Assembly (NCBI GenBank): GCA_964016885.1
Contig: OZ024742.1
Span: forward strand, 92,690,001-92,754,000
DNA from: Eledone cirrhosa
Taxonomy: Eukaryota
Length of the DNA stretch: 64,000 bases
Direction: 5' to 3'
Within the stretch, counting starts at the first letter, position 1. Each line of letters opens with the position of its first letter. The notes below the pieces were generated by a model. That model was not told where the DNA came from and did no database searches. It worked only from the letters and a program-made list of their open reading frames with translations. Below, piece after piece: positions 11,581 to 63,203 of this stretch. The translations under genes were made by a program, and so were the position numbers.

Positions 11581-11819
11581 AATGTATGTGTAGATGTATA
11601 TTTCTACTTCTCTCTCTCATGGCTTGTAATTCTTTGTGTGTTATTTTCTCTCAATCTCAACTCCCCCCCTCTCTCAACTCTCCCAATGCAATTTTCTCTC
11701 CCACTTGCTGTTATATTCTCTCAATAACACCCTCCTCTACTGCTATTAACCTATCTCCCCCCTCACTCACTGTGGCTACTACTCATCCTCTCTCCCTGTC
11801 ACAACTTGCCATATATACA

Positions 11820-11869
<50 letters not shown>

Positions 11870-12241
11870 CACACACATATATATATATATATATATACAT
11901 ATATATAGTAATAATAATAAATTTGAAGACTAAAATCCAAAGAGGGCTCGATAAGGAGAAATATATATCAAATATATAAGAACCGTAGAGCAAATATTTA
12001 TTAAAATAACAGATTAAAGTTTAAGCAAAGAATCGCTGCTTTCACCCTTAACGGGATCTTCTGAAACTAACAAAGTCAATCTGTAAACGCAGAACTGGAT
12101 ATTTCAAAAAACGTTGCAACCGGAGGAAGACAGGAAGACGATACTTTGGTTCGTGGAAATGTTCGCTATGCAAATAAGTAAAGGAATAAACAAAAACTTA
12201 GCTCCCACATCAAGACATAAAATATCCACGTATAGATCGTA

Positions 12242-12830
12242 CTATCCGTTAGGGTATAACGTGGGGCTGTAGTACAGGAAAGTTTTGTGCAATTTATGTT
12301 TACAAGCCGAAATTGCCTCAGATTTTTTGTTTAAGATGTGGTCTGTGGTGTAGAGTATTTCCAGGGCCTCAGCGGCGCAGCGGTCACATGGTCTTTTATT
12401 TCCGTTATACGATCTAGCCCTAGCTAGGATCTCCCAGTGTAACTTATATTGGGTGTGGTTGTCTTTTAGACTCCAGATATAAGCTGAAAGTGACGTCATA
12501 TTCCTTCTTAGAGGGTAACGAAAAGAATGGGTATGCATGTAAAGACGCTGCTTGAAACTATTGGCGGTTAACCCTATGTAGGCCCTACGGGACGTGGGTG
12601 TTACAACCTTACATTTGTAGACAATGTTACTAGAGAGGCATTTCCCAGATAGGGGGCAATCAGCCCAATTCCTACAATTACAGTTAGTACTAACTACAGA
12701 GTTGCACGTGTTCCTACGGCTAGGTAGTTTAGCTAAATTTGAAGCTGTGATGTTATGTGCAAGGTTAGGAGTCGTAGAGTAAGAAATTTTAATAGTATTT
12801 CTATTAAAAATTTTACTATATTTATGTGTA
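12242..12830 (-). pseudogene. PLE C-terminal Cys linker + GIY-YIG endonuclease fragment
   Basis: HKYSKIFNRNTIKISYSTTPNL...CNCRNWADCPLSGKCLSSNIVYKC...AYIGLTANSFKQR; collinear with the C-terminus of 60301-62400. Confidence 0.9.
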
Positions 12831-13321
12831 GTTTCAAGCAGCGTCTTTACATGCATACCCATTCTTTTCATTACCCTCTAAGAAGGAATATGACGTCACT
12901 TTTAGCTTATATCTGGAGTCTAAAAGACAACCACACCCAATATAAGTTACACTGAGAGATCCTAGCTAGGGCTAGATCGTATAATGGAAATAAAAGACCA
13001 TGTGACCTCTGCGCCGCTGAGGCCCTGGAAATACTCTACGCCACAGACCACATCTTAAACAAAAAAATCTGAGGCAATTTCGGCTTGCAAACATAAATTG
13101 CACAAAACTTTCCTGTACTACAGCCCCACGTTATACCCTAACGGATAGTACGATCTATACGTGGATATTTTACGTCTTGATGTGGGAGCTAAGTTTTTGT
13201 TTATTCCTTTACTTATTTGCATAGCGAACGTTTCCACGAACCAAAGTATCGTCTTCCTGTCTTCCTCCGGCTGCAACGTTTTTTGAAATATCCAGTTCTG
13301 CGTTTACAGATTGACTTTGTT

Positions 13322-13372
13322 AGTTTCAGAAGATCCTGTTAAGGGTGAAAGCAGCGATTCTTTGCTTAAACT
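13322..13372 (+). ncRNA. Variant type I hammerhead-like motif in the PLE 3' region (mirror copy at 12018-12068, minus strand)
   Basis: agttt CAGAAGA stemII GAAA gca..tgc TT aaact; core has U4->A. Confidence 0.5.
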
Positions 13373-13403
13373 TTAATCTGTTATTTTAATAAATATACAT
13401 ATA

Positions 13404-16163
13404 AGAAATTGGAATAAATGCTCTGAAATAGCGATATATATGTGAATATAGACATAGAATATTCGAAAATATTCTGTATGTTTATAATAAACATTTTGAA
13501 GACCTAATCGCTATAGAATAGAATACGTCACGTATTACAATTAGATTCTCGATAAAAGCAAGGGAAGTAATCTACGCGTTTCATTCTTTTTAGAAATCAT
13601 CAGGACTACATATCCAGTGCTTTTATCGAGAATGACACAGCTAGAGACTTATAGAATACTTAGCTGTGTACAGGAACTGGTTTGAAAGAGCGGTTGCCGG
13701 TCCGGCAGAAATTAGAAATTGGAATAAATGCTCTGAAATAGCGATATATATGTGAATATAGACATAGAATATTCGAAAATATTCTGTATGTTTATAATAA
13801 ACATTTTGAAGACCTAATCGCTATAGAATAGAATACGTCACGTATTACAATTAGATTCTCGATAAAAGCAAGGGAAGTAATCTACGCGTTTCATTCTTTT
13901 TAGAAATCATCAGGACTACATATCCAGTGCTTTTATCGAGAATGACACAGCTAGAGACTTATAGAATACTTAGCTGTGTACAGGAACTGGTTTGAAAGAG
14001 CGGTTGCCGGTCCGGCAGAAATTAGAAATTGGAATAAATGCTCTGAAATAGCGATATATATGTGAATATAGACATAGAATATTCGAAAATATTCTGTATG
14101 TTTATAATAAACATTTTGAAGACCTAATCGCTATAGAATAGAATACGTCACGTATTACAATTAGATTCTCGATAAAAGCAAGGGAAGTAATCTACGCGTT
14201 TCATTCTTTTTAGAAATCATCAGGACTACATATCCAGTGCTTTTATCGAGAATGACACAGCTAGAGACTTATAGAATACTTAGCTGTGTACAGGAACTGG
14301 TTTGAAAGAGCGGTTGCCGGTCCGGCAGAAATTAGAAATTGGAATAAATGCTCTGAAATAGCGATATATATGTGAATATAGACATAGAATATTCGAAAAT
14401 ATTCTGTATGTTTATAATAAACATTTTGAAGACCTAATCGCTATAGAATAGAATACGTCACGTATTACAATTAGATTCTCGATAAAAGCAAGGGAAGTAA
14501 TCTACGCGTTTCATTCTTGACGTTTCATACGTGACGTATTCTATTCTATAGCGATTAGGTCTTCAAAATGTTTATTATAAACATACAGAATATTTTCGAA
14601 TATTCTATGTCTATATTCACATATATATCGCTATTTCAGAGCATTTATTCCAATTTCTAATTTCTGCCGGACCGGCAACCGCTCTTTCAAACCAGTTCCT
14701 GTACACAGCTAAGTATTCTATAAGTCTCTAGCTGTGTCATTCTCGATAAAAGCACTGGATATGTAGTCCTGATGATTTCTAAAAAGAATGAAACGCGTAG
14801 ATTACTTCCCTTGCTTTTATCGAGAATCTAATTGTAATACGTGACGTATTCTATTCTATAGCGATTAGGTCTTCAAAATGTTTATTATAAACATACAGAA
14901 TATTTTCGAATATTCTATGTCTATATTCACATATATATCGCTATTTCAGAGCATTTATTCCAATTTCTAATTTCTGCCGGACCGGCAACCGCTCTTTCAA
15001 ACCAGTTCCTGTACACAGCTAAGTATTCTATAAGTCTCTAGCTGTGTCATTCTCGATAAAAGCACTGGATATGTAGTCCTGATGATTTCTAAAAAGAATG
15101 AAACGCGTAGATTACTTCCCTTGCTTTTATCGAGAATCTAATTGTAATACGTGACGTATTCTATTCTATAGCGATTAGGTCTTCAAAATGTTTATTATAA
15201 ACATACAGAATATTTTCGAATATTCTATGTCTATATTCACATATATATCGCTATTTCAGAGCATTTATTCCAATTTCTAATTTCTGCCGGACCGGCAACC
15301 GCTCTTTCAAACCAGTTCCTGTACACAGCTAAGTATTCTATAAGTCTCTAGCTGTGTCATTCTCGATAAAAGCACTGGATATGTAGTCCTGATGATTTCT
15401 AAAAAGAATGAAACGCGTAGATTACTTCCCTTGCTTTTATCGAGAATCTAATTGTAATACGTGACGTATTCTATTCTATAGCGATTAGGTCTTCAAAATG
15501 TTTATTATAAACATACAGAATATTTTCGAATATTCTATGTCTATATTCACATATATATCGCTATTTCAGAGCATTTATTCCAATTTCTAATTTCTGCCGG
15601 ACCGGCAACCGCTCTTTCAAACCAGTTCCTGTACACAGCTAAGTATTCTATAAGTCTCTAGCTGTGTCATTCTCGATAAAAGCACTGGATATGTAGTCCT
15701 GATGATTTCTAAAAAGAATGAAACGCGTAGATTACTTCCCTTGCTTTTATCGAGAATCTAATTGTAATACGTGACGTATTCTATTCTATAGCGATTAGGT
15801 CTTCAAAATGTTTATTATAAACATACAGAATATTTTCGAATATTCTATGTCTATATTCACATATATATCGCTATTTCAGAGCATTTATTCCAATTTCTAA
15901 TTTCTGCCGGACCGGCAACCGCTCTTTCAAACCAGTTCCTGTACACAGCTAAGTATTCTATAAGTCTCTAGCTGTGTCATTCTCGATAAAAGCACTGGAT
16001 ATGTAGTCCTGATGATTTCTAAAAAGAATGAAACGCGTAGATTACTTCCCTTGCTTTTATCGAGAATCTAATTGTAATACGTGACGTATTCTATTCTATA
16101 GCGATTAGGTCTTCAAAATGTTTATTATAAACATACAGAATATTTTCGAATATTCTATGTCTA
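13404..16163. repeat. 310-bp-unit tandem array with central inversion (3.6 units + 5.3 inverted units); retrozyme-like
   Basis: Period 310 (13411, 13721, 14031, 14341); orientation switch at 14518-14527; units look identical by eye. Confidence 0.95.
14763..14805 (+). ncRNA. Minimal type I hammerhead ribozyme of the 310-bp unit (plus copies at 14763, 15073, 15383, 15693, 16003; minus copies at 13567, 13877, 14187)
   Basis: gtagtc CTGATGA tttctaaaaagaat GAAA cgcg TA gattac: 6-bp stem I, palindromic stem III ACGCGT, GUA site; further 16-bp helix attctcgataaaagca/tgcttttatcgagaat. Confidence 0.9.
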
Positions 16164-16164
16164 A

Positions 16165-16201
<37 letters not shown>

Positions 16202-16226
16202 TACACATATATATACATATATACAC

Positions 16227-16257
<31 letters not shown>

Positions 16258-16514
16258 CACACACATATATATATATACATATATATATATATACACACAC
16301 ATATATATATATACACACACATATATACACATATATATATATATACACACACACACACATATATATTACTTCTAACAACCTCCCACACTACCCTATGTCG
16401 AGCACTATCTCACTCTCTGGATGTTACAATCTCCCTATTACATCAAATTAAATTCCAAACTCATTGATGTCATCTTAAATACATCAGTTGAAAAAAAAAT
16501 ACAACAGAAGGAAA

Positions 16515-17330: not shown

Positions 17331-18227
17331 CAGGGTGTGGACGATATTTGTTCGCAATTTTCAACTGCTAATTTTATGCAAATCTTTTTTACTTCCGTTG
17401 TCACTCTTGTCTTCATAAAAACAGTGACTATATTTCCATTATTTATTTTCAGAATAATTGATTATGAATAATTTTGAACCTCCAAATTTGTGGAAGAGAC
17501 ACGGAGTTCTTCTTGGAATCCGTGCCAGGAGGACAAATAATGAAATTTCAGACTTTCTCAGCGTCAGCAGGAGAATGGTGGAAAAGGTCAGAAAGGAATT
17601 GGAAGATTCAGGATTCGACTACAAAGCAACATCAGAGAGGAAAACACATGATCATGATTGAGGATCTGACGCCTTCAGAACACCCGAGTTCATCGCTGAA
17701 GTTCAGGATATCATCAACAATGAACCTAGCAAGTCGATGCGTGCCATTGCAAGGGAGAAAGGCGTGGATGAAAAGCTCATTAGGCTGCAGGTAGGCCGTA
17801 CATGTGGCAGCAAGACTCAGCGCCTTCCCATACCAGCCGAAAGACCCAAGCCTGGCTGTCAGAGAACTTCGTCGGCCACACTTCACCTGACATCTGGCCT
17901 CCCAGCTCGCCTGACTGCAACCCCCTCAACTTCTTTGTGTGGGGCACAGTGGAACAAGGCACCAACAGATCTAGCTGCAATACGAAAGATGATCTGAAGG
18001 CCAGGATCACAAGTGTCTTTAGTGCCTAAGTCGGGGGACAGTGACGAAGGCCTGTAGCCGCCTTGAGGCCGTCATCAAAGCCAATGGCGGGTTTATCGAG
18101 TGAGATCAAAAGAACAAGTCATGAAGACAAACTGACCCAAGTTTGATAAATAAATCTTAAAAAATAAAACTACTGTGTTATCTTTTCCTAGACAGTAATC
18201 TTGCGAACAAATATTGTCCACACCCTG
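17331..18227 (+). mobile_element. Internally deleted Tc1/mariner-superfamily DNA transposon
   Basis: 27-bp TIRs (cagggtgtggacgatatttgttcgcaa, 1 mismatch), TA target duplication, transposase remnant WQQDSAPSHTS...WPPSSPDCNPLNFFVWG. Confidence 0.92.
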
Positions 18228-22399: not shown

Positions 22400-22602
22400 A
22401 GGGGTCTTCCACAGAACTAGAACTGTTTCATTCGTAGGAAACCATCAGGGAAGTCCTTTCCTGATGATTTCATACAAATGAAATAGTTCTAGTCCTGTAA
22501 AAGTCATTTCTATATAAAATTTTAAATTACCTATACTCAACATAAGTACTGAGTACCTTTTTTAACTGTGGCTACCCTCCGACACAACTTGGGAATCTAC
22601 AT
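22400..22602. mobile_element. Diverged double-HHR mini-element related to 40923-41118, in opposite overall orientation
   Basis: ctgatgatttcatacaaatgaaatagttctagtcctgta with an inverted partial copy; 3' tail aligns by eye with the 40923 family. Confidence 0.7.
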
Positions 22603-29357: not shown

Positions 29358-35563
<6,206 letters not shown>

Positions 35564-35570
35564 TATATAC

Positions 35571-35727
<157 letters not shown>

Positions 35728-35728
35728 C

Positions 35729-35762
<34 letters not shown>

Positions 35763-35765
35763 CCA

Positions 35766-35825
<60 letters not shown>

Positions 35826-35826
35826 C

Positions 35827-36027
<201 letters not shown>

Positions 36028-36040
36028 CATATATATATAC

Positions 36041-36077
<37 letters not shown>

Positions 36078-36291
36078 ACGAAGGAAATGTGGTAAGGAAC
36101 CAGGTGAACCATAACGCACCAAAGTACTCAATACTTGAGGTAGTAGAGTGGGTAGTAGGAACCAGTAAGACCCCGACAGCTGAGCTCAAGCCGTTTCGAC
36201 GGCTAATTCTGGACTCAGAATTAGTCCAGAATTAGTCCAGAATTAGCCGTCGAAACGGCTTGAGCTCAGCTGTCGGGGTCTTACTGGTTCC

Positions 36292-36296
<5 letters not shown>
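36078..36296. mobile_element. Hairpin mini-element with two inverted HHR 3' halves (copies at 41681-41899 and 44753-44971)
   Basis: 63-bp inverted arms at 36153-36215 and 36234-36296; flanked by (TA)n; same family as 38255-38884. Confidence 0.85.
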
Positions 36297-36348
<52 letters not shown>

Positions 36349-36350
<2 letters not shown>

Positions 36351-37738
36351 AAATGACCGCCTGACTAGCACGCAACATGGCTTCCGCCCAGGAAGAAGCT
36401 GCCTTACACAGCTGCTACATCACTACGACTGGGTACTGAGACAGCTACTAGACAGCTCATATGTAGACGTGATATATCTTGACTTTGCGAAGGCCTTTGA
36501 CAAGGTCGACCACGGAATGATATGTCACAAACTACACGGACTCGGTATAACTGGAAAAGTAGGTGAGTGGCTGCATGGCTTCCTGAGGGACAGAAGCCAG
36601 GCAGTCGCAGCAAATGGGGCCCTCTCGAGGGAAACACCGATAACAAGTGGGGTGCCTCAGGGGACAGTCCTGGGACCACTACTGTTTTTGGTGGCTCTCT
36701 CGGACATGCCCTCTGTGGTGCATGCAACAACATCCCTCACTAGCTATGCTGATGACACTAAGGTAGCACAGGCAATCAAAAACCCGGCTGACGCTGCCCT
36801 CTTACAGCAGGATCTGGATGCCATATACAGATGGGCGGAAGAAAACAACATGCAGTTTAATGCTGGCAAATTCCAAGCCCTACAATACAAACCTGCAAAC
36901 ACAAACACAAATATAGCGGAACACAGCTACACAGGACCAGGAGGGACCGATATCCCCGTGTCAAAATCGATACGAGACCTGGGCATAGACATGAGCGATG
37001 ATGCATCTTTTTCTTCACACATCATGAAGGTGGCGACAGCATGTAGACGATTCGCTGGCTGGATCTTGAGGACTTTCCTTACAAGAGATCGAGACACCAT
37101 GTTGACACTGTGGAGGACTTTTGTCCTAAGCCGCCTGGACTACTGCTCCCAGCTGTGGTCACCCCATAGTGTCAAACTAACCACAGAGCTTGAGGCAATC
37201 CAGCGAAGCTACACCAAGAGGATTGCCAAGATGAGGGAGACAAGCTACTGGGAGAGGCTGAAGGAACTGAACCTCTACTCCTTGGAGCGAAGACGGGAGA
37301 GATACGCAGTGATCTACATGTGGAAAATCCTGGAGGGACTAGCACCAAACTTTGGCATTGGGAGCTGGACCAACCGTCGAACAGGACGTCACTGTGTGGT
37401 GCCAAAGGTCCCGTCTTCCACATCTAGAATAAGGAGCAGGTATTGCAATAGCCTGGGATTCAAGGGCCCTCAACTCTTCAACAGGCTGCCGAGGCATCTG
37501 CGAGACTTGCATGACGTGGAGGTGGATGTCTTTAAGAAACATCTCGACACCTTGTTATCCAGGATCCCGGATGAGCCCACAGCAAGACACGAGGGAAACC
37601 TAAGGGCAGCAGCAACAAACTCCCTCCTACACCAGTGGCCAACCTATACAGGCTGGAGATAAAATGTGTAGCAACAAGGGCGGTGCCCCAGCATGGCCTC
37701 AGCCGGATGGCTGAAACAGGTAAAAGAGTAAAAGAGTA
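36349..37738 (+). mobile_element. 5'-truncated CR1/L2-like LINE, copy 1 (open RT C-terminal frame 36469-37662)
   Basis: YLDFAKAFD, SGVPQGTVLGP, YADD, LDYCSQLWSP; (taaaagag) tail. Confidence 0.93.
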
Positions 37739-37757
37739 TATATATATATATATATAT

Positions 37758-37941
<184 letters not shown>

Positions 37942-37943
37942 AT

Positions 37944-38248
<305 letters not shown>

Positions 38249-38254
38249 CATATA

Positions 38255-40922
<2,668 letters not shown>

Positions 40923-40923
<1 letters not shown>

Positions 40924-41118
40924 CGTTATTCCGGGTTGAATCGGAGGTAACCACAGTAAGTAAGGTACTCAATACATAGCAGAGTATAACAGTTTTAATA
41001 TAGATGAGATTCTACAGGACTAGTACTGTTTCATTCATTAGAAATCATCAGGAATCTGATGATTCCTGATGATTTCTAATGAATGAAACAGTTCTAGTCC
41101 TGTAGAATCTCATCTATA
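40923..41118. mobile_element. 196-bp mini-element with two divergent hammerheads (copies at 44001-44196 and 58569-58764)
   Basis: Minus HHR 41008-41056 and plus HHR 41061-41109: gattc CTGATGA tttctaatgaat GAAA cag..ctg TA gaatc. Confidence 0.88.
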
Positions 41119-41126
41119 TATATATC

Positions 41127-41158
<32 letters not shown>

Positions 41159-41183
41159 CATATATATATACATATATATATAC

Positions 41184-41230
<47 letters not shown>

Positions 41231-41321
41231 TATATAAATATATATATATACATATATATATATACATATATATATATACATATATATATATACATATATA
41301 TATATACATATATATATATAC

Positions 41322-41357
<36 letters not shown>

Positions 41358-41360
41358 CCA

Positions 41361-41420
<60 letters not shown>

Positions 41421-41421
41421 C

Positions 41422-41630
<209 letters not shown>

Positions 41631-41643
41631 CATATATATATAC

Positions 41644-41680
<37 letters not shown>

Positions 41681-41894
41681 ACGAAGGAAATGTGGTAAGG
41701 AACCAGGTGAACCATAACGCACCAAAGTACTCAATACTTGAGGTAGTAGAGTGGGTAGTAGGAACCAGTAAGACCCCAACAGCTGAGCTCAAGCCGTTTC
41801 GACGGCTAATTCTGGACTCAGAATTAGTCCAGAATTAGTCCAGAATTAGCCGTCGAAACGGCTTGAGCTCAGCTGTCGGGGTCTTACTGGTTCC

Positions 41895-41959
<65 letters not shown>

Positions 41960-41961
<2 letters not shown>

Positions 41962-43349
41962 AAATGACCGCCTGACTAGCACGCAACATGGCTTCCGCCC
42001 AGGAAGAAGCTGCCTTACACAGCTGCTACATCACTACGACTGGGTACTGAGACAGCTACTAGACAGCTCATATGTAGACGTGATATATCTTGACTTTGCG
42101 AAGGCCTTTGACAAGGTCGACCACGGAATGATATGTCACAAACTACACGGACTCGGTATAACTGGAAAAGTAGGTGAGTGGCTGCATGGCTTCCTGAGGG
42201 ACAGAAGCCAGGCAGTCGCAGCAAATGGGGCCCTCTCGAGGGAAACACCGATAACAAGTGGGGTGCCTCAGGGGACAGTCCTGGGACCACTACTGTTTTT
42301 GGTGGCTCTCTCGGACATGCCCTCTGTGGTGCATGCAACAACATCCCTCACTAGCTATGCTGATGACACTAAGGTAGCACAGGCAATCAAAAACCCGGCT
42401 GACGCTGCCCTCTTACAGCAGGATCTGGATGCCATATACAGATGGGCGGAAGAAAACAACATGCAGTTTAATGCTGGCAAATTCCAAGCCCTACAATACA
42501 AACCTGCAAACACAAACACAAATATAGCGGAACACAGCTACACAGGACCAGGAGGGACCGATATCCCCGTGTCAAAATCGATACGAGACCTGGGCATAGA
42601 CATGAGCGATGATGCATCTTTTTCTTCACACATCATGAAGGTGGCGACAGCATGTAGACGATTCGCTGGCTGGATCTTGAGGACTTTCCTTACAAGAGAT
42701 CGAGACACCATGTTGACACTGTGGAGGACTTTTGTCCTAAGCCGCCTGGACTACTGCTCCCAGCTGTGGTCACCCCATAGTGTCAAACTAACCACAGAGC
42801 TTGAGGCAATCCACCGAAGCTACACCAAGAGGATTGCCAAGATGAGGGAGACAAGCTACTGGGAGAGGCTGAAGGAACTGAACCTCTACTCCTTGGAGCG
42901 AAGACGGGAGAGATACGCAGTGATCTACATGTGGAAAATCCTGGAGGGACTAGCACCAAACTTTGGCATTGGGAGCTGGACCAACCGTCGAACAGGACGT
43001 CACTGTGTGGTGCCAAAGGTCCCGTCTTCCACATCTAGAATAAGGAGCAGGTATTGCAATAGCCTGGGATTCAAGGGCCCTCAACTCTTCAACAGGCTGC
43101 CGAGGCATCTGCGAGACTTGCATGACGTGGAGGTGGATGTCTTTAAGAAACATCTCGACACCTTGTTATCCAGGATCCCGGATGAGCCCACAGCAAGACA
43201 CGAGGGAAACCTAAGGGCAGCAGCAACAAACTCCCTCCTACACCAGTGGCCAACCTATACAGGCTGGAGATAAAATGTGTAGCAACAAGGGCGGTGCCCC
43301 AGCATGGCCTCAGCCGGATGGCTGAAACAGGTAAAAGAGTAAAAGAGTA
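41960..43349 (+). mobile_element. CR1/L2-like LINE, copy 2 (ORF 42080-43273)
   Basis: Same truncation point as copy 1; one Q->H difference in the ORF. Confidence 0.93.
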
Positions 43350-43368
43350 TATATATATATATATATAT

Positions 43369-43552
<184 letters not shown>

Positions 43553-43554
43553 AT

Positions 43555-43701
<147 letters not shown>

Positions 43702-43704
43702 TAC

Positions 43705-43739
<35 letters not shown>

Positions 43740-43752
43740 CATATATATATAC

Positions 43753-43785
<33 letters not shown>

Positions 43786-43832
43786 CATATATATATACAT
43801 ATACATATATATATATATACATATATATATAC

Positions 43833-43891
<59 letters not shown>

Positions 43892-43938
43892 CATATATAT
43901 ATACATATATATATATATATACATATATATACATATAC

Positions 43939-44001
<63 letters not shown>

Positions 44002-44204
44002 CGTTATTCCGGGTTGAATCGGAGGTAACCACAGTAAGTAAGGTACTCAATACATAGCAGAGTATAACAGTTTTAATATAGATGAGATTCTACAGGACTA
44101 GTACTGTTTCATTCATTAGAAATCATCAGGAATCTGATGATTCCTGATGATTTCTAATGAATGAAACAGTTCTAGTCCTGTAGAATCTCATCTATATATA
44201 TATC

Positions 44205-44236
<32 letters not shown>

Positions 44237-44261
44237 CATATATATATACATATATATATAC

Positions 44262-44306
<45 letters not shown>

Positions 44307-44397
44307 TATATAAATATATATATATACATATATATATATACATATATATATATACATATATATATATACATATATATATATACATATATATATATAC

Positions 44398-44433
<36 letters not shown>

Positions 44434-44436
44434 CCA

Positions 44437-44496
<60 letters not shown>

Positions 44497-44497
44497 C

Positions 44498-44702
<205 letters not shown>

Positions 44703-44715
44703 CATATATATATAC

Positions 44716-44752
<37 letters not shown>

Positions 44753-44966
44753 ACGAAGGAAATGTGGTAAGGAACCAGGTGAACCATAACGCACCAAAGT
44801 ACTCAATACTTGAGGTAGTAGAGTGGGTAGTAGGAACCAGTAAGACCCCGACAGCTGAGCTCAAGCCGTTTCGACGGCTAATTCTGGACTCAGAATTAGT
44901 CCAGAATTAGTCCAGAATTAGCCGTCGAAACGGCTTGAGCTCAGCTGTCGGGGTCTTACTGGTTCC

Positions 44967-45007
<41 letters not shown>

Positions 45008-45009
<2 letters not shown>

Positions 45010-46397
45010 AAATGACCGCCTGACTAGCACGCAACATGGCTTCCGCCCAGGAAGAAGCTGCCTTACACAGCTGCTACATCACTACGACTGGGTACTGAGA
45101 CAGCTACTAGACAGCTCATATGTAGACGTGATATATCTTGACTTTGCGAAGGCCTTTGACAAGGTCGACCACGGAATGATATGTCACAAACTACACGGAC
45201 TCGGTATAACTGGAAAAGTAGGTGAGTGGCTGCATGGCTTCCTGAGGGACAGAAGCCAGGCAGTCGCAGCAAATGGGGCCCTCTCGAGGGAAACACCGAT
45301 AACAAGTGGGGTGCCTCAGGGGACAGTCCTGGGACCACTACTGTTTTTGGTGGCTCTCTCGGACATGCCCTCTGTGGTGCATGCAACAACATCCCTCACT
45401 AGCTATGCTGATGACACTAAGGTAGCACAGGCAATCAAAAACCCGGCTGACGCTGCCCTCTTACAGCAGGATCTGGATGCCATATACAGATGGGCGGAAG
45501 AAAACAACATGCAGTTTAATGCTGGCAAATTCCAAGCCCTACAATACAAACCTGCAAACACAAACACAAATATAGCGGAACACAGCTACACAGGACCAGG
45601 AGGGACCGATATCCCCGTGTCAAAATCGATACGAGACCTGGGCATAGACATGAGCGATGATGCATCTTTTTCTTCACACATCATGAAGGTGGCGACAGCA
45701 TGTAGACGATTCGCTGGCTGGATCTTGAGGACTTTCCTTACAAGAGATCGAGACACCATGTTGACACTGTGGAGGACTTTTGTCCTAAGCCGCCTGGACT
45801 ACTGCTCCCAGCTGTGGTCACCCCATAGTGTCAAACTAACCACAGAGCTTGAGGCAATCCAGCGAAGCTACACCAAGAGGATTGCCAAGATGAGGGAGAC
45901 AAGCTACTGGGAGAGGCTGAAGGAACTGAACCTCTACTCCTTGGAGCGAAGACGGGAGAGATACGCAGTGATCTACATGTGGAAAATCCTGGAGGGACTA
46001 GCACCAAACTTTGGCATTGGGAGCTGGACCAACCGTCGAACAGGACGTCACTGTGTGGTGCCAAAGGTCCCGTCTTCCACATCTAGAATAAGGAGCAGGT
46101 ATTGCAATAGCCTGGGATTCAAGGGCCCTCAACTCTTCAACAGGCTGCCGAGGCATCTGCGAGACTTGCATGACGTGGAGGTGGATGTCTTTAAGAAACA
46201 TCTCGACACCTTGTTATCCAGGATCCCGGATGAGCCCACAGCAAGACACGAGGGAAACCTAAGGGCAGCAGCAACAAACTCCCTCCTACACCAGTGGCCA
46301 ACCTATACAGGCTGGAGATAAAATGTGTAGCAACAAGGGCGGTGCCCCAGCATGGCCTCAGCCGGATGGCTGAAACAGGTAAAAGAGTAAAAGAGTA
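45008..46397 (+). mobile_element. CR1/L2-like LINE, copy 3 (ORF 45128-46321)
   Basis: Translation identical to copy 1. Confidence 0.93.
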
Positions 46398-46416
46398 TAT
46401 ATATATATATATATAT

Positions 46417-46594
<178 letters not shown>

Positions 46595-46596
46595 AT

Positions 46597-46909
<313 letters not shown>

Positions 46910-47543
46910 CATATAACGAAGGAAATGTGGTAAGGAACCAGGTGGACCATAACGCACCAAAGTACTCAATACTTGAGGTAGTAGAGTGGGTAATAGGGTC
47001 CTTGCCTTATTCGTCCCACCTAGTTCTCTTACTTATTTCCTTATTTATTCATTTATTTATTTTTTTACTTCTTTCTTTCTTTCTTTATTTTATTCTCGCC
47101 TAACAATAGCCTGACACCTAGGTCGTAGAATTTAATTTACTTTACTTTTCTTTACACTTATTTGCCTTTCTTCACTCTCAGTATTTTTTTTTTTTTTTCT
47201 TTCCTATTTCTACCCCCCATTGTTCTACCTACCGTTCCGACTTCCCCCCCTCCCCCTCCCCTGTATCTTCTTTGACCTCATGCCCAGCTGTAGCTGGCAC
47301 TACCAACGCTTGATTGGGTCTACTCCACCCCTCCCCTCTTTCTCCTACTGGCAGGTTTAGCCACCATCTCCCCTACTAATTTGCAACCACAGAATTACTA
47401 CTGATTTTTGACAATCACTTTGACCATATATGGAATTACCCCTTGAGAAGATCGGCTATTTAAATACCAGGATAAATTTTCATTTAGTCCAGAATTAGCC
47501 GTCGAAACGGCTTGAGCTCAGCTGTCGGGGTCTTACTGGTTCC

Positions 47544-47711
<168 letters not shown>

Positions 47712-47737
47712 TATACATATATATACATATATATACA

Positions 47738-47965
<228 letters not shown>

Positions 47966-47966
47966 C

Positions 47967-48309
<343 letters not shown>

Positions 48310-48325
48310 CATATATATATTTATA

Positions 48326-48377
<52 letters not shown>

Positions 48378-48414
48378 CATATATATACATATATATATAT
48401 ATACATATATATAC

Positions 48415-48446
<32 letters not shown>

Positions 48447-48447
<1 letters not shown>

Positions 48448-51400
48448 ATTAAGTTAAAGATGTACATCCATATATGTATACTGAAATACTAGTATGTATA
48501 TGAATACACACACGTATACATATGTAGATGTACCAAGTTTTTTCACTGGTCACTTTACTGTGAGTGGCCAGCTATTCTGTATGTAAACACACAGACAAAC
48601 CGGTTTTTAGAGTCATACTGGTTTTTGAGGAAACACCTTTCCTCTATTCTCCAGAAAGCCAGACAAGGAATATTGAACTAGTTTCGTTGTTGTTACAACT
48701 CATCAGCAATATTTACCTATCTTCCGGCCTCTCTAGAGAATCGTAAAAGCACATATCGTTATATGCTTTTTCTATGAAAATTAGTAGTGGGCAGACTAAT
48801 TTGCATAGAGTGTGAGTAAGTACCGGTTCAACGGAGACGATAAAAACAAATAACGAAACGAAATTAAATTTCGTTTCGTTTGTAACTCACTTTTGTATGA
48901 CTGACGCTTAAACAATTAAGTTAAAGATGTACATCCATATATGTATACTGAAATACTAGTATGTATATGAATACACACACGTATACATATGTAGATGTAC
49001 CAAGTTTTTTCACTGGTCACTTTACTGTGAGTGGCCAGCTATTCTGTATGTAAACACACAGACAAACCGGTTTTTAGAGTCATACTGGTTTTTGAGGAAA
49101 CACCTTTCCTCTATTCTCCAGAAAGCCAGACAAGGAATATTGAACTAGTTTCGTTGTTGTTACAACTCATCAGCAATATTTACCTATCTTCCGGCCTCTC
49201 TAGAGAATCGTAAAAGCACATATCGTTATATGCTTTTTCTATGAAAATTAGTAGTGGGCAGACTAATTTGCATAGAGTGTGAGTAAGTACCGGTTCAACG
49301 GAGACGATAAAAACAAATAACGAAACGAAATTAAATTTCGTTTCGTTTGTAACTCACTTTTGTATGACTGACGCTTAAACAATTAAGTTAAAGATGTACA
49401 TCCATATATGTATACTGAAATACTAGTATGTATATGAATACACACACGTATACATATGTAGATGTACCAAGTTTTTTCACTGGTCACTTTACTGTGAGTG
49501 GCCAGCTATTCTGTATGTAAACACACAGACAAATCGGTTTTTAGAGTCATACTGGTTTTTGAGGAAACACCTTTCCTCTATTCTCCAGAAAGCCAGACAA
49601 GGAATATTGAACTAGTTTCGTTGTTGTTACAACTCATCAGCAATATTTACCTATCTTCCGGCCTCTCTAGAGAATCGTAAAAGCACATATCGTTATATGC
49701 TTTTTCTATGAAAATTAGTAGTGGGCAGACTAATTTGCATAGAGTGTGAGTAAGTACCGGTTCAACGGAGACGATAAAAACAAATAACGAAACGAAATTA
49801 AATTTCGTTTCGTTTGTAACTCACTTTTGTATGACTGACGCTTAAACAATTAAGTTAAAGATGTACATCCATATATGTATACTGAAATACTAGTATGTAT
49901 ATGAATACACACACGTATACATATGTAGATGTACCAAGTTTTTTCACTGGTCACTTTACTGTGAGTGGCCAGCTATTCTGTATGTAAACACACAGACAAA
50001 CCGGTTTTTAGAGTCATACTGGTTTTTGAGGAAACACCTTTCCTCTATTCTCCAGAAAGCCAGACAAGGAATATTGAACTAGTTTCGTTGTTGTTACAAC
50101 TCATCAGCAATATTTACCTATCTTCCGGCCTCTCTAGAGAATCGTAAAAGCACATATCGTTATATGCTTTTTCTATGAAAATTAGTAGTGGGCAGACTAA
50201 TTTGCATAGAGTGTGAGTAAGTACCGGTTCAACGGAGACGATAAAAACAAATAACGAAACGAAATTAAATTTCGTTTCGTTTGTAACTCACTTTTGTATG
50301 ACTGACGCTTAAACAATTAAGTTAAAGATGTACATCCATATATGTATACTGAAATACTAGTATGTATATGAATACACACACGTATACATATGTAGATGTA
50401 CCAAGTTTTTTCACTGGTCACTTTACTGTGAGTGGCCAGCTATTCTGTATGTAAACACACAGACAAACCGGTTTTTAGAGTCATACTGGTTTTTGAGGAA
50501 ACACCTTTCCTCTATTCTCCAGAAAGCCAGACAAGGAATATTGAACTAGTTTCGTTGTTGTTACAACTCATCAGCAATATTTACCTATCTTCCGGCCTCT
50601 CTAGAGAATCGTAAAAGCACATATCGTTATATGCTTTTTCTATGAAAATTAGTAGTGGGCAGACTAATTTGCATAGAGTGTGAGTAAGTACCGGTTCAAC
50701 GGAGACGATAAAAACAAATAACGAAACGAAATTAAATTTCGTTTCGTTTGTAACTCACTTTTGTATGACTGACGCTTAAACAATTAAGTTAAAGATGTAC
50801 ATCCATATATGTATACTGAAATACTAGTATGTATATGAATACACACACGTATACATATGTAGATGTACCAAGTTTTTTCACTGGTCACTTTACTGTGAGT
50901 GGCCAGCTATTCTGTATGTAAACACACAGACAAACCGGTTTTTAGAGTCATACTGGTTTTTGAGGAAACACCTTTCCTCTATTCTCCAGAAAGCCAGACA
51001 AGGAATATTGAACTAGTTTCGTTGTTGTTACAACTCATCAGCAATATTTACCTATCTTCCGGCCTCTCTAGAGAATCGTAAAAGCACATATCGTTATATG
51101 CTTTTTCTATGAAAATTAGTAGTGGGCAGACTAATTTGCATAGAGTGTGAGTAAGTACCGGTTCAACGGAGACGATAAAAACAAATAACGAAACGAAATT
51201 AAATTTCGTTTCGTTTGTAACTCACTTTTGTATGACTGACGCTTAAACAATTAAGTTAAAGATGTACATCCATATATGTATACTGAAATACTAGTATGTA
51301 TATGAATACACACACGTATACATATGTAGATGTACCAAGTTTTTTCACTGGTCACTTTACTGTGAGTGGCCAGCTATTCTGTATGTAAACACACAGACAA

Positions 51401-54400
51401 ACCGGTTTTTAGAGTCATACTGGTTTTTGAGGAAACACCTTTCCTCTATTCTCCAGAAAGCCAGACAAGGAATATTGAACTAGTTTCGTTGTTGTTACAA
51501 CTCATCAGCAATATTTACCTATCTTCCGGCCTCTCTAGAGAATCGTAAAAGCACATATCGTTATATGCTTTTTCTATGAAAATTAGTAGTGGGCAGACTA
51601 ATTTGCATAGAGTGTGAGTAAGTACCGGTTCAACGGAGACGATAAAAACAAATAACGAAACGAAATTAAATTTCGTTTCGTTTGTAACTCACTTTTGTAT
51701 GACTGACGCTTAAACAATTAAGTTAAAGATGTACATCCATATATGTATACTGAAATACTAGTATGTATATGAATACACACACGTATACATATGTAGATGT
51801 ACCAAGTTTTTTCACTGGTCACTTTACTGTGAGTGGCCAGCTATTCTGTATGTAAACACACAGACAAACCGGTTTTTAGAGTCATACTGGTTTTTGAGGA
51901 AACACCTTTCCTCTATTCTCCAGAAAGCCAGACAAGGAATATTGAACTAGTTTCGTTGTTGTTACAACTCATCAGCAATATTTACCTATCTTCCGGCCTC
52001 TCTAGAGAATCGTAAAAGCACATATCGTTATATGCTTTTTCTATGAAAATTAGTAGTGGGCAGACTAATTTGCATAGAGTGTGAGTAAGTACCGGTTCAA
52101 CGGAGACGATAAAAACAAATAACGAAACGAAATTAAATTTCGTTTCGTTTGTAACTCACTTTTGTATGACTGACGCTTAAACAATTAAGTTAAAGATGTA
52201 CATCCATATATGTATACTGAAATACTAGTATGTATATGAATACACACACGTATACATATGTAGATGTACCAAGTTTTTTCACTGGTCACTTTACTGTGAG
52301 TGGCCAGCTATTCTGTATGTAAACACACAGACAAACCGGTTTTTAGAGTCATACTGGTTTTTGAGGAAACACCTTTCCTCTATTCTCCAGAAAGCCAGAC
52401 AAGGAATATTGAACTAGTTTCGTTGTTGTTACAACTCATCAGCAATATTTACCTATCTTCCGGCCTCTCTAGAGAATCGTAAAAGCACATATCGTTATAT
52501 GCTTTTTCTATGAAAATTAGTAGTGGGCAGACTAATTTGCATAGAGTGTGAGTAAGTACCGGTTCAACGGAGACGATAAAAACAAATAACGAAACGAAAT
52601 TAAATTTCGTTTCGTTTGTAACTCACTTTTGTATGACTGACGCTTAAACAATTAAGTTAAAGATGTACATCCATATATGTATACTGAAATACTAGTATGT
52701 ATATGAATACACACACGTATACATATGTAGATGTACCAAGTTTTTTCACTGGTCACTTTACTGTGAGTGGCCAGCTATTCTGTATGTAAACACACAGACA
52801 AACCGGTTTTTAGAGTCATACTGGTTTTTGAGGAAACACCTTTCCTCTATTCTCCAGAAAGCCAGACAAGGAATATTGAACTAGTTTCGTTGTTGTTACA
52901 ACTCATCAGCAATATTTACCTATCTTCCGGCCTCTCTAGAGAATCGTAAAAGCACATATCGTTATATGCTTTTTCTATGAAAATTAGTAGTGGGCAGACT
53001 AATTTGCATAGAGTGTGAGTAAGTACCGGTTCAACGGAGACGATAAAAACAAATAACGAAACGAAATTAAATTTCGTTTCGTTTGTAACTCACTTTTGTA
53101 TGACTGACGCTTAAACAATTAAGTTAAAGATGTACATCCATATATGTATACTGAAATACTAGTATGTATATGAATACACACACGTATACATATGTAGATG
53201 TACCAAGTTTTTTCACTGGTCACTTTACTGTGAGTGGCCAGCTATTCTGTATGTAAACACACAGACAAACCGGTTTTTAGAGTCATACTGGTTTTTGAGG
53301 AAACACCTTTCCTCTATTCTCCAGAAAGCCAGACAAGGAATATTGAACTAGTTTCGTTGTTGTTACAACTCATCAGCAATATTTACCTATCTTCCGGCCT
53401 CTCTAGAGAATCGTAAAAGCACATATCGTTATATGCTTTTTCTATGAAAATTAGTAGTGGGCAGACTAATTTGCATAGAGTGTGAGTAAGTACCGGTTCA
53501 ACGGAGACGATAAAAACAAATAACGAAACGAAATTAAATTTCGTTTCGTTTGTAACTCACTTTTGTATGACTGACGCTTAAACAATTAAGTTAAAGATGT
53601 ACATCCATATATGTATACTGAAATACTAGTATGTATATGAATACACACACGTATACATATGTAGATGTACCAAGTTTTTTCACTGGTCACTTTACTGTGA
53701 GTGGCCAGCTATTCTGTATGTAAACACACAGACAAACCGGTTTTTAGAGTCATACTGGTTTTTGAGGAAACACCTTTCCTCTATTCTCCAGAAAGCCAGA
53801 CAAGGAATATTGAACTAGTTTCGTTGTTGTTACAACTCATCAGCAATATTTACCTATCTTCCGGCCTCTCTAGAGAATCGTAAAAGCACATATCGTTATA
53901 TGCTTTTTCTATGAAAATTAGTAGTGGGCAGACTAATTTGTATAGAGTGTGAGTAAGTACCGGTTCAACGGAGACGATAAAAACAAATAACGAAACGAAA
54001 TTAAATTTCGTTTCGTTTGTAACTCACTTTTGTATGACTGACGCTTAAACAATTAAGTTAAAGATGTACATCCATATATGTATACTGAAATACTAGTATG
54101 TATATGAATACACACACGTATACATATGTAGATGTACCAAGTTTTTTCACTGGTCACTTTACTGTGAGTGGCCAGCTATTCTGTATGTAAACACACAGAC
54201 AAACCGGTTTTTAGAGTCATACTGGTTTTTGAGGAAACACCTTTCCTCTATTCTCCAGAAAGCCAGACAAGGAATATTGAACTAGTTTCGTTGTTGTTAC
54301 AACTCATCAGCAATATTTACCTATCTTCCGGCCTCTCTAGAGAATCGTAAAAGCACATATCGTTATATGCTTTTTCTATGAAAATTAGTAGTGGGCAGAC

Positions 54401-57400
54401 TAATTTGCATAGAGTGTGAGTAAGTACCGGTTCAACGGAGACGATAAAAACAAATAACGAAACGAAATTAAATTTCGTTTCGTTTGTAACTCACTTTTGT
54501 ATGACTGACGCTTAAACAATTAAGTTAAAGATGTACATCCATATATGTATACTGAAATACTAGTATGTATATGAATACACACACGTATACATATGTAGAT
54601 GTACCAAGTTTTTTCACTGGTCACTTTACTGTGAGTGGCCAGCTATTCTGTATGTAAACACACAGACAAACCGGTTTTTAGAGTCATACTGGTTTTTGAG
54701 GAAACACCTTTCCTCTATTCTCCAGAAAGCCAGACAAGGAATATTGAACTAGTTTCGTTGTTGTTACAACTCATCAGCAATATTTACCTATCTTCCGGCC
54801 TCACCGGTACTTACTCACACTCTATGCAAATTAGTCTGCCCACTACTAATTTTCATAGAAAAAGCATATAACGATATGTGCTTTTACGATTCTCTAGAGA
54901 GGCCGGAAGATAGGTAAATATTGCTGATGAGTTGTAACAACAACGAAACTAGTTCAATATTCCTTGTCTGGCTTTCTGGAGAATAGAGGAAAGGTGTTTC
55001 CTCAAAAACCAGTATGACTCTAAAAACCGGTTTGTCTGTGTGTTTACATACAGAATAGCTGGCCACTCACAGTAAAGTGACCAGTGAAAAAACTTGGTAC
55101 ATCTACATATGTATACGTGTGTGTATTCATATACATACTAGTATTTCAGTATACATATATGGATGTACATCTTTAACTTAATTGTTTAAGCGTCAGTCAT
55201 ACAAAAGTGAGTTACAAACGAAACGAAATTTAATTTCGTTTCGTTATTTGTTTTTATCGTCTCCGTTGAACCGGTACTTACTCACACTCTATGCAAATTA
55301 GTCTGCCCACTACTAATTTTCATAGAAAAAGCATATAACGATATGTGCTTTTACGATTCTCTAGAGAGGCCGGAAGATAGGTAAATATTGCTGATGAGTT
55401 GTAACAACAACGAAACTAGTTCAATATTCCTTGTCTGGCTTTCTGGAGAATAGAGGAAAGGTGTTTCCTCAAAAACCAGTATGACTCTAAAAACCGGTTT
55501 GTCTGTGTGTTTACATACAGAATAGCTGGCCACTCACAGTAAAGTGACCAGTGAAAAAACTTGGTACATCTACATATGTATACGTGTGTGTATTCATATA
55601 CATACTAGTATTTCAGTATACATATATGGATGTACATCTTTAACTTAATTGTTTAAGCGTCAGTCATACAAAAGTGAGTTACAAACGAAACGAAATTTAA
55701 TTTCGTTTCGTTATTTGTTTTTATCGTCTCCGTTGAACCGGTACTTACTCACACTCTATGCAAATTAGTCTGCCCACTACTAATTTTCATAGAAAAAGCA
55801 TATAACGATATGTGCTTTTACGATTCTCTAGAGAGGCCGGAAGATAGGTAAATATTGCTGATGAGTTGTAACAACAACGAAACTAGTTCAATATTCCTTG
55901 TCTGGCTTTCTGGAGAATAGAGGAAAGGTGTTTCCTCAAAAACCAGTATGACTCTAAAAACCGGTTTGTCTGTGTGTTTACATACAGAATAGCTGGCCAC
56001 TCACAGTAAAGTGACCAGTGAAAAAACTTGGTACATCTACATATGTATACGTGTGTGTATTCATATACATACTAGTATTTCAGTATACATATATGGATGT
56101 ACATCTTTAACTTAATTGTTTAAGCGTCAGTCATACAAAAGTGAGTTACAAACGAAACGAAATTTAATTTCGTTTCGTTATTTGTTTTTATCGTCTCCGT
56201 TGAACCGGTACTTACTCACACTCTATGCAAATTAGTCTGCCCACTACTAATTTTCATAGAAAAAGCATATAACGATATGTGCTTTTACGATTCTCTAGAG
56301 AGGCCGGAAGATAGGTAAATATTGCTGATGAGTTGTAACAACAACGAAACTAGTTCAATATTCCTTGTCTGGCTTTCTGGAGAATAGAGGAAAGGTGTTT
56401 CCTCAAAAACCAGTATGACTCTAAAAACCGGTTTGTCTGTGTGTTTACATACAGAATAGCTGGCCACTCACAGTAAAGTGACCAGTGAAAAAACTTGGTA
56501 CATCTACATATGTATACGTGTGTGTATTCATATACATACTAGTATTTCAGTATACATATATGGATGTACATCTTTAACTTAATTGTTTAAGCGTCAGTCA
56601 TACAAAAGTGAGTTACAAACGAAACGAAATTTAATTTCGTTTCGTTATTTGTTTTTATCGTCTCCGTTGAACCGGTACTTACTCACACTCTATGCAAATT
56701 AGTCTGCCCACTACTAATTTTCATAGAAAAAGCATATAACGATATGTGCTTTTACGATTCTCTAGAGAGGCCGGAAGATAGGTAAATATTGCTGATGAGT
56801 TGTAACAACAACGAAACTAGTTCAATATTCCTTGTCTGGCTTTCTGGAGAATAGAGGAAAGGTGTTTCCTCAAAAACCAGTATGACTCTAAAAACCGGTT
56901 TGTCTGTGTGTTTACATACAGAATAGCTGGCCACTCACAGTAAAGTGACCAGTGAAAAAACTTGGTACATCTACATATGTATACGTGTGTGTATTCATAT
57001 ACATACTAGTATTTCAGTATACATATATGGATGTACATCTTTAACTTAATTGTTTAAGCGTCAGTCATACAAAAGTGAGTTACAAACGAAACGAAATTTA
57101 ATTTCGTTTCGTTATTTGTTTTTATCGTCTCCGTTGAACCGGTACTTACTCACACTCTATGCAAATTAGTCTGCCCACTACTAATTTTCATAGAAAAAGC
57201 ATATAACGATATGTGCTTTTACGATTCTCTAGAGAGGCCGGAAGATAGGTAAATATTGCTGATGAGTTGTAACAACAACGAAACTAGTTCAATATTCCTT
57301 GTCTGGCTTTCTGGAGAATAGAGGAAAGGTGTTTCCTCAAAAACCAGTATGACTCTAAAAACCGGTTTGTCTGTGTGTTTACATACAGAATAGCTGGCCA

Positions 57401-57592
57401 CTCACAGTAAAGTGACCAGTGAAAAAACTTGGTACATCTACATATGTATACGTGTGTGTATTCATATACATACTAGTATTTCAGTATACATATATGGATG
57501 TACATCTTTAACTTAATTGTTTAAGCGTCAGTCATACAAAAGTGAGTTACAAACGAAACGAAATTTAATTTCGTTTCGTTATTTGTTTTTAT
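48447..57592. repeat. 467-bp-unit tandem array with central inversion (13.6 units + 6 inverted units); retrozyme-like
   Basis: Period 467 from the repeated ORFs; orientation switch at 54802/54803; (TA)n on both sides. Confidence 0.97.
54917..54961 (+). ncRNA. Minimal type I hammerhead of the 467-bp unit (6 plus copies; 14 minus copies, first at 48669-48713)
   Basis: aatattg CTGATGA gttgt aaca acaac GAAA ctag TT caatatt: 7-bp stem I, 5-bp stem II, palindromic ACTAGT stem III, GUU site. Confidence 0.9.
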
Positions 57593-58569: not shown

Positions 58570-58772
58570 CGTTATTCCGGGTTGAATCGGAGGTAACCAC
58601 AGTAAGTAAGGTACTCAATACATAGCAGAGTATAACAGTTTTAATATAGATGAGATTCTACAGGACTAGTACTGTTTCATTCATTAGAAATCATCAGGAA
58701 TCTGATGATTCCTGATGATTTCTAATGAATGAAACAGTTCTAGTCCTGTAGAATCTCATCTATATATATATC

Positions 58773-59685: not shown

Positions 59686-60073
59686 AATGAATAATAACAG
59701 GTAGACATCATAAAAAGGTAGTTTATTCCGTGTGCTTACAAGTGTTTCCACGGTGGTGCTGCAAATACTTGTGAATTTGCACGTAGCGGAACTAGGCTGC
59801 AGCACCACCGTGGAAACACTTGTAAGTACACGGAATAAACTACCTTTTTATGATGTCTACCTGTTATTATTCATTCTTTATATACACTCCGGAATACTGA
59901 AGGATCAGGAACTAAGTTTCTTGAACAATTCTTCCATAACTCGTAGAGTAACCTCTTACCGTACGTCAACCATATCCAGTGTAGTAATTAACCATCACTA
60001 TATCTTGGATAATCCTATACCTAATAATCGCCTCCTACACAGTTGAGCAACCACACCGACACACGGCATTAAT

Positions 60074-63004: not shown

Positions 63005-63203
63005 CACGGAATAAACTACCTTTTTATGATGTCTACCTGTTATTATTCATTCTTTATATACACTCCGGAATACTGAAGGATCAGGAACTAAGTTTCTTGA
63101 ACAATTCTTCCATAACTCGTAGAGTAACCTCTTACCGTACGTCAACCATATCCAGTGTAGTAATTAACCATCACTACATCTTGGATATTCCTATACCTAA
63201 TAT

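Follow-up and report, generated by a model that had tools for sequence, protein, structure and literature searches.

Architecture of the Array and Its Surroundings

The window, i.e., the whole stretch of DNA that was analyzed, comprises 64,000 nucleotides of the Eledone cirrhosa genome (assembly GCA_964016885.1, contig OZ024742.1, positions 92,690,001 to 92,754,000). It contains a head-to-head array of a 310-nt unit, both arms of which show zero mismatches to the unit (Table 1). The GC content of the array is 33-35% and no LTR is present. No stop-free frame of 80 amino acids was found inside the array, and the unit, having no ORF, lacks the RT plus GIY-YIG reading frame that characterizes an autonomous PLE. 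The two arms are separated by the filler GACGTTTC. Its TGACGT occurs again at 14532 and its CGTTTCAT again at 14507, so that two overlapping copies of sequence located not more than 15 nt away on either side account for it. The initial annotation had described this flip with a filler resembling nearby unit sequence and had read it as a templated end-joining scar, and both statements were borne out.

Table 1. Features of the 310-nt array and its flanks (positions in the window).
Feature	Position	Strand	Remarks
(TA)n microsatellite, left of PLE fragment	11811..11907		
Palindromic 3' PLE fragment, head-to-head, with CxCX5C linker and GIY-YIG (Hydra-type motifs)	11908..13396		Motif definitions from the available text of PMC8557442
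Target-site duplication TAAATATACATATA, left copy	13390..13403	+	7 nt PLE end + 7 nt microsatellite
Left arm	13404..14518	-	3.60 units, from unit position 132 at the outer end (site B) to 258 at the inner end
Hammerhead domain with 16-bp extension	13545..13633	-	Predicted cleavage after 13573
Hammerhead domain	13855..13943	-	Predicted cleavage after 13883
Hammerhead domain	14165..14253	-	Predicted cleavage after 14193
Filler at inversion junction	14519..14526	+	8 nt; two overlapping local copies
Right arm	14527..16163	+	5.28 units, with the outer end in site A (unit position 85-87)
Module shared with 317-324-nt sister families	14546..14726	+	Unit ~20-200; holds both inferred reverse-transcription start sites
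Hammerhead domain	14739..14827	+	Core from 14769; predicted cleavage after 14799; repeats at +310, +620, +930, +1240
Stem I and 16-bp helix of this domain	14763-14768/14800-14805; 14739-14754/14812-14827	+	
Target-site duplication TAAATATACATATA, right copy	16162..16175	+	14 nt
(TA)n microsatellite target, right of array	16165..16366		

The PLE fragment to the left forms a palindrome (arms 11994-12560 and 12829-13396, 98%) that ends 7 nt before the array. The long end of its family lies on the left arm and the short end on the right arm, which stops at the common short end of the family and leaves an 86-nt tail. Copies of this family are mostly 93-98% identical and older. The reported adjacency of array and palindromic PLE fragment was therefore real, but the PLE is an earlier and separate insertion: because the 14-nt duplication TAAATATACATATA includes the last 7 nt of the PLE, the fragment must have been present first and the array was inserted at the junction of PLE and microsatellite. 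Arrival of both in one event is ruled out by the same duplication.

Another PLE lies at 60256-62400 of the window. Its 714-aa frame carries the Hydra-type motifs DKT and CxCX5C, with RWK encoded in a frame upstream; the element also has a terminal repeat in direct orientation (59756-60026 / 62932-63202) and a short copy in inverted orientation. Pfam searches with the adjacent fragment, this 714-aa ORF and the 1217-aa ORF of a further PLE family described below returned nothing significant, nor did a PDB search with the 1217-aa ORF. The PLE and clade labels of all three, including the Hydra-type motifs of the PLEs of the window, therefore rest on motifs read by eye against the available text of PMC8557442.

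The Hammerhead Ribozyme of the Unit

The core CTGATGA..GAAACGCGTA was found five times on the plus strand and three times on the minus strand, with one additional truncated copy at 14475-14518. The eight hammerheads are identical, of type I, one per unit, and carry the stem III ACGCGU and the GUA site that had been annotated. Each has a 6-bp stem I, a four-position stem II with U-U at its base, and a helix III of 1-2 bp with a palindromic loop. The annotated 16-bp helix extending stem I is present and perfect in each copy and sits past two internal loops. These stem features match the canonical metazoan type I form given in the accessible part of PMC4209133 (4-nt palindromic insert, 6-bp stem I, loop-bearing stem II). 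The designation as a minimal hammerhead had to be abandoned, the minimal PLE type being described there as having nothing in helix III/loop 3 beyond the core. As far as the available text of PMC7229834 describes them, axolotl HHR_Amex1 has a similar palindromic tetraloop above a single pair, and HHR_Amex2 a similar U-U at the helix II base. Rfam reported nothing on the array at the gathering score; the best model was HH9, below threshold (21.2 bits vs gathering 52, E 0.01). Neither the core pattern nor Rfam detected a ribozyme on the opposite polarity of the unit. Judged from its sequence, the hammerhead is of canonical metazoan type I, with an intact and conserved core, and is predicted to self-cleave.

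Among the variants fixed at individual loci none of 32 hit the 12 core nucleotides, and 10 of the 11 at paired sites kept the pair, the structure having been folded from the 310-nt unit itself and 50% being expected by transitions alone. The circularly folded unit gave z ~ -4.3 against 40 dinucleotide shuffles, with a similar value for the minus strand (-4.6). The active hammerhead fold lies ~8 kcal/mol above the predicted minimum of the monomer, which counts against the explanation favored below. In a two-unit RNA an inter-unit stem III can form without predicted energy cost, and the ACGCGU palindrome supports the dimer-type stem III that had been proposed. A weak palindromic helix III favors dimers and spares monomeric circles according to the available text of PMC4209133; only one of nine Xenopus dimers is reported to cleave in vitro in that of bioRxiv 10.64898/2026.07.22.740005.

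Family Size and Sampled Loci

In the 3.0 Gb genome the core pattern gave 14,242 matches (0 for the reversed control) and a second unit pattern 16,242, so that the family holds at least 16,000 units. At ~9 units per insertion the latter count corresponds to ~1,800 loci. A pattern for the junction at site B (defined below) matched 756 times on one strand and caught 8/13 B ends of an unselected set, which leads to up to ~2,400 loci. We estimate that the family consists of roughly 2,000 insertions, and well over a thousand, mostly head-to-head arrays in (TA)n.

A total of 76 loci was examined in three sets. The 13 loci nearest to the variant of the window comprised 10 complete inverted arrays, one cut by a contig end, one cut by a gap and one single arm. 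In the second set, made up of the first 15 loci with the core on contig C1, 11 arrays were inverted and four had a single arm. The third set of 48 loci, chosen for the B end, comprised 45 inverted arrays, two that extended beyond the fetched stretch (>22 units) and one single arm. Whether other genomic copies are inverted as well, a check suggested with the initial annotation, is answered in the affirmative by these counts. The 5-6 single-arm loci among those sampled count against the favored explanation. The loci are dispersed, mostly 98-100% identical and have differing junctions. The array at 13404-16163 is an ordinary family member with nothing special about its locus.

The assignment to a retrozyme family was supported by tandem 310-nt non-coding units in dispersed copies, amounting to thousands of units, with target duplications of 12-15 nt at 9/66 loci. 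Metazoan non-LTR retrozymes are characterized, in the available texts of PMC7229834, PMC7761336 and bioRxiv 10.64898/2026.07.22.740005, by tandem units of 150-450 bp with low GC (<50%), no ORF and no LTR, one type I hammerhead per unit, dispersed copies, target duplications >4 bp and a self-paired predicted RNA. All of these features are found in the 310-nt family. Whereas expression and circles were demonstrated in the published cases, the 310-nt family is known here from genomic sequence.

Paired Ends and a Probable PLE Footprint

Every one of the 66 complete inverted insertions has its 3' ends facing outward and combines an arm that ends at site A (unit ~85-102) with an arm that ends at site B (~119-135). 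The windows for A and B were derived from the first 10 loci; TA microhomology makes the A end less sharp. For the 21 of these loci that were taken without selection on their ends, A+B pairing has p ~5e-7 under independent ends. The typical tail, i.e., the stretch from site A to site B, measures 26-33 nt. Informative target duplications of 12-15 nt were present at 9/66 loci compared with 0.73 in shuffled flanks (maximum 3 of 300); at most other loci they are unreadable because the targets are uninterrupted TA. A looser test was weak (25/66 vs 14.1) and the stricter one was used instead. The flanks are (TA)n or AT-rich; the target of L047 is AT-rich and not a microsatellite.

PLE copies are inverted and 5'-truncated, often only one of their ends has a tail of 30-40 bp, and they target (TA)n, as stated in the available text of PMC8557442. 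In vitro, the tail of an anole PLE corresponds to the stretch between two internal reverse-transcription start sites, and the enzyme cuts and extends both target strands (PMC11167929). With respect to the inverted 5'-truncated copy, the one-end tail, the two internal start sites, the (TA)n targeting and a target duplication of ~8-15 nt, the 310-nt family resembles PLEs as they appear in the accessible parts of PMC8557442, PMC11167929 and PMC3846280. It differs from them in that it encodes no protein and each arm is a multi-unit concatemer. The A+B pairing across 66 loci is likely the PLE tail signature, and analogy with the start sites of the anole PLE in vitro agrees with this. The A/B ends, the target duplications and the (TA)n targets also support the shared, PLE-type integration route that had been proposed from the locus alone. 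We consider it very probable that the insertions arose by PLE-type priming from both ends of the cut.

In L1 twin priming both ends of a staggered cut prime on one RNA and microhomology joins the ends; the internal site used by the second primer varies, and each cDNA covers a different part. The 310-nt family differs in having two fixed start sites, with both cDNAs covering the same sequence.

The Template of the Two Arms

Of 61 loci in which the arms overlapped sufficiently, 58 had the same haplotype in both arms, compared with 9.7% of 3,971 between-locus pairs, and 33 haplotypes were distinguished among 74 internally uniform loci. At 10 loci, private variants (unseen at other sampled loci) were fixed in all copies of both arms. 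This suggests a bottleneck of a single unit, and repeated copying of one unit would be the simplest route to it. The cleavage site (273/274) was crossed 587 times with two minor substitutions and no sporadic indels, and inner ends were not enriched at it (2/132 vs 3.0 expected), which argues for a template continuous over the cleavage site, either circular or uncleaved.

Alternatively, the same PLE twin priming could use as its template a linear multimer, transcribed from a donor array and left uncleaved, in which case the ribozyme would have no role in integration. For the anole PLE in vitro mainly unprocessed RNA was used and hammerhead cleavage was dispensable (PMC11167929). Two loci, L085 and L098, speak for this explanation, carrying a variant at the matching ordinal unit of both arms, namely restricted to the first-copied one, which a pure monomer circle cannot produce. 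Likewise, two haplotypes are mixed at four loci (L029, L032, L073, L077). Against it, only 2 minor variants were shared vs 39 unshared among 56,504 doubly copied positions. Nor does a multimer readily explain the fixation of private variants or the uniformity of most loci in spite of 33 haplotypes, the arms of 19 to >22 units in spite of truncation in each round, or the conservation of the ribozyme core. We therefore regard the linear multimer as unlikely to be the usual template. L085, L098, the mixed loci and L061, which shows a 7-unit period, indicate that some templates were multimeric, or that switching or conversion took place. Closed 340-nt contigs from sequencing runs are compatible with a DNA array as much as with a circle. 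Given PLE-type priming from both ends, a circular monomer was probably the usual template.

Joining of the Inner Ends

The inner ends are spread over the unit (offsets 0-306 nt). The lengths of the two arms show a weak correlation at most (rho 0.24, p 0.05), and the longer arm can be of either kind (A in 32/66). Among 67 junctions, 46 belong to the filler-free/overlap class, 19 have short fillers and two have long inserts. Zero overlap was seen in 9 of the 46 filler-free junctions vs 53% expected. In 9 of the 10 fillers of at least 6 nt, at least three quarters matched the unit, by eye near the junction. Microhomology and templated fillers of this kind resemble polymerase-theta end joining. 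One long insert, at L062:2099-2370, consists of 272 nt of GC-rich foreign sequence between the arms and had no Rfam match; the inner junction of L034 (3043-3220) is complex, with two extra strand switches.

These junctions bear on self-priming, which the available text of PMC3846280 proposes for rotifer PLEs and in which one cDNA (or antisense RNA) folds back and copies itself into the inverted arm. Fold-back would account for the identical haplotypes across arms, and four of the 46 filler-free junctions have overlaps of 10-17 nt at natural hairpins. It would place the inner ends close to a small loop, where no cluster was found. Because the inner ends are spread, the arm lengths at most weakly related and either arm may be longer, the data argue against it; self-priming alone also leaves the second fixed end, at a reverse-transcription start site, unexplained. 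We consider fold-back very unlikely.

An inversion produced by a missed adapter would yield symmetric arms and flanks. Least credible of all is the expansion of single PLE-type insertions into satellite DNA by unequal crossing-over, or an assembly artefact behind the inversion: local amplification is the model in the available text of bioRxiv 10.64898/2026.07.22.740005, variants repeat within one arm at L061 and L062, and the junction at 13404-16163 is taken from the assembly, but the loci are dispersed and mostly 98-100% identical, with differing junctions, fixed asymmetric ends and target duplications, and one haplotype spans both inverted arms.

A Model of Integration

Our preferred reading, to which we assign a probability of about 0.7, is that the array is a young non-LTR retrozyme insertion, with a target duplication of 12-14 nt and two fixed outer ends, written by a PLE-like enzyme. 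The enzyme would have primed on a single RNA, probably circular, from each end of a staggered cut. In transcripts of an array, neighboring hammerheads would pair via the ACGCGU palindrome and release monomers. Judging from other animals, a host ligase would circularize these, and a lone circle would cut itself poorly. A presumed PLE protein would then nick the two strands of AT-rich DNA ~13 nt from each other. Reverse transcription would start from one 3' end at site B and from the other 26-33 nt upstream, at site A; the footprint of nicking and priming is visible in the insertions. Each cDNA may circle the template a variable number of times. The two cDNA ends would finally be joined via 1-4-nt microhomology or a locally templated filler, as the footprint at the junctions indicates. 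We give even odds to a more specific version, in which a PLE dimer binds a single RNA circle produced by the ribozyme, using two fixed positions on it, and rolls round it from both ends of the cut, unit 20-200 acting as a portable start signal for PLEs.

The available texts of PMC7229834, PMC7761336 and bioRxiv 10.64898/2026.07.22.740005 already describe retrozymes and their circles as well as the hypothesis of PLE involvement. There, mobilization of animal retrozymes by PLEs via circular RNA has so far been proposed from co-occurrence and phylogeny. The accessible parts of the cited PLE papers call the origin of inverted PLE copies and tails unresolved. In the literature searched (few subscription papers, no supplements) we came across no description of retrozyme insertions that have two arms and complementary ends; the word "inverted" is absent from the available text of PMC7229834 and occurs once, in a reference title, in that of bioRxiv 10.64898/2026.07.22.740005. 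With ~2,000 near-identical insertions that strictly combine one A with one B end, each from one template haplotype, and with intact young PLEs in the genome, both questions become testable in vitro. If the more specific version is correct, genomic data would reveal how retrozymes integrate, the inverted-plus-tail structure of PLEs would reflect twin priming and not self-priming, and the module 20-200 would have swapped hammerhead domains.

Candidate PLE Partner

A very young autonomous PLE family (L171-L185, e.g., L178:2022-5672) has a 1217-aa frame with an asparagine-rich insert and a minimal hammerhead in its terminal repeat. Its youngest copies are 99.5-100% identical and occur as inverted and tandem insertions. 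In 12/12 pairs listed, one arm ends at ORF nt 21-26 and the other at 69-85, which is the pairing rule of the 310-nt family and speaks for the preferred reading, and target duplications of ~13-15 nt are readable at two of these pairs. This PLE is a candidate source of the enzyme, and a candidate only, because age, target and duplication length match whereas tail length and sequence do not. Tail lengths vary by family: they are 26-33 nt in the 310-nt family and 43-64 nt in the very young PLE, whereas other families have 74 and 86 nt. A PLE similar in sequence to the 310-nt unit was found at 0/40 sister-module loci and 0/45 PLE loci; both observations count against the preferred reading. Among the four PLE families examined, no terminal repeat of an autonomous PLE was homologous to the unit. 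A second abundant PLE family (L141-L155) has 796-aa frames with RVT_1 and GIY-YIG domains (Pfam).

Sister Families and Other Hammerhead Elements

The initial annotation had treated the 310-nt family as independent and its array as a second, unrelated one. Its independence is qualified by sister families of 317-324 nt, which share unit ~20-200, including both start sites, and differ in the ribozyme domain. Sister copies (L047:7110-8010, L099:2640-3150, L101-L140) often have a decayed hammerhead and show longer self-complementary stem III variants. With regard to the 467-nt unit of another array in the window, "unrelated" holds for alignable sequence only (the best match is the ribozyme domain, E 0.36), and both have a long stem I extension in common. 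The 467-nt hammerhead array (48447-57592) consists of 13.6 + 6.0 units head-to-head in (TA)n, ends at unit positions 381 and 455 (74-nt tail) and has the stem III ACTAGT and a similar long helix extension. Another retrozyme family at L050, of ~420-430 nt, is interleaved with PLE fragments and the 310-nt family. A self-complementary stem III is also present in the 467-nt family, the L050 family and 10/15 sister-family variants.

Viroid-like circular RNAs resemble the 310-nt unit in size, self-paired structure and hammerhead. The unit differs from them in having its ribozyme in one polarity only and in being integrated with a retrotransposition footprint.

A near-identical unit was found in 20 sequencing runs carrying 18 organism labels. 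Among the seven runs examined of 24 listed, X1 was deep in PLE and array and X8 contained PLE pieces at depth 2-10, a signal that fits trace host DNA; run X9 covered the array only, X3, X12 and X16 were compared with the array alone, and X23 yielded no reads. None of the runs listed with the unit was an RNA run, which says nothing about expression, and the spread of labels, for which horizontal transfer or a free RNA replicon was considered, speaks neither for nor against transfer.

Elsewhere in the window, very short inverted hammerhead stubs lie in (TA)n at 41005-41115, 44083-44190, 58650-58760 and 22410-22500, three of the four having 25/28 core nucleotides as in the 310-nt unit. The region 35500-48500 contains multi-kilobase duplicated blocks with three copies of a LINE reverse-transcriptase fragment and long (TA)n, reflecting local duplication or assembly redundancy. 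Positions 17340-18200 contain transposase-like fragments, recognized from translations, which we take to be of the Tc1/mariner type.
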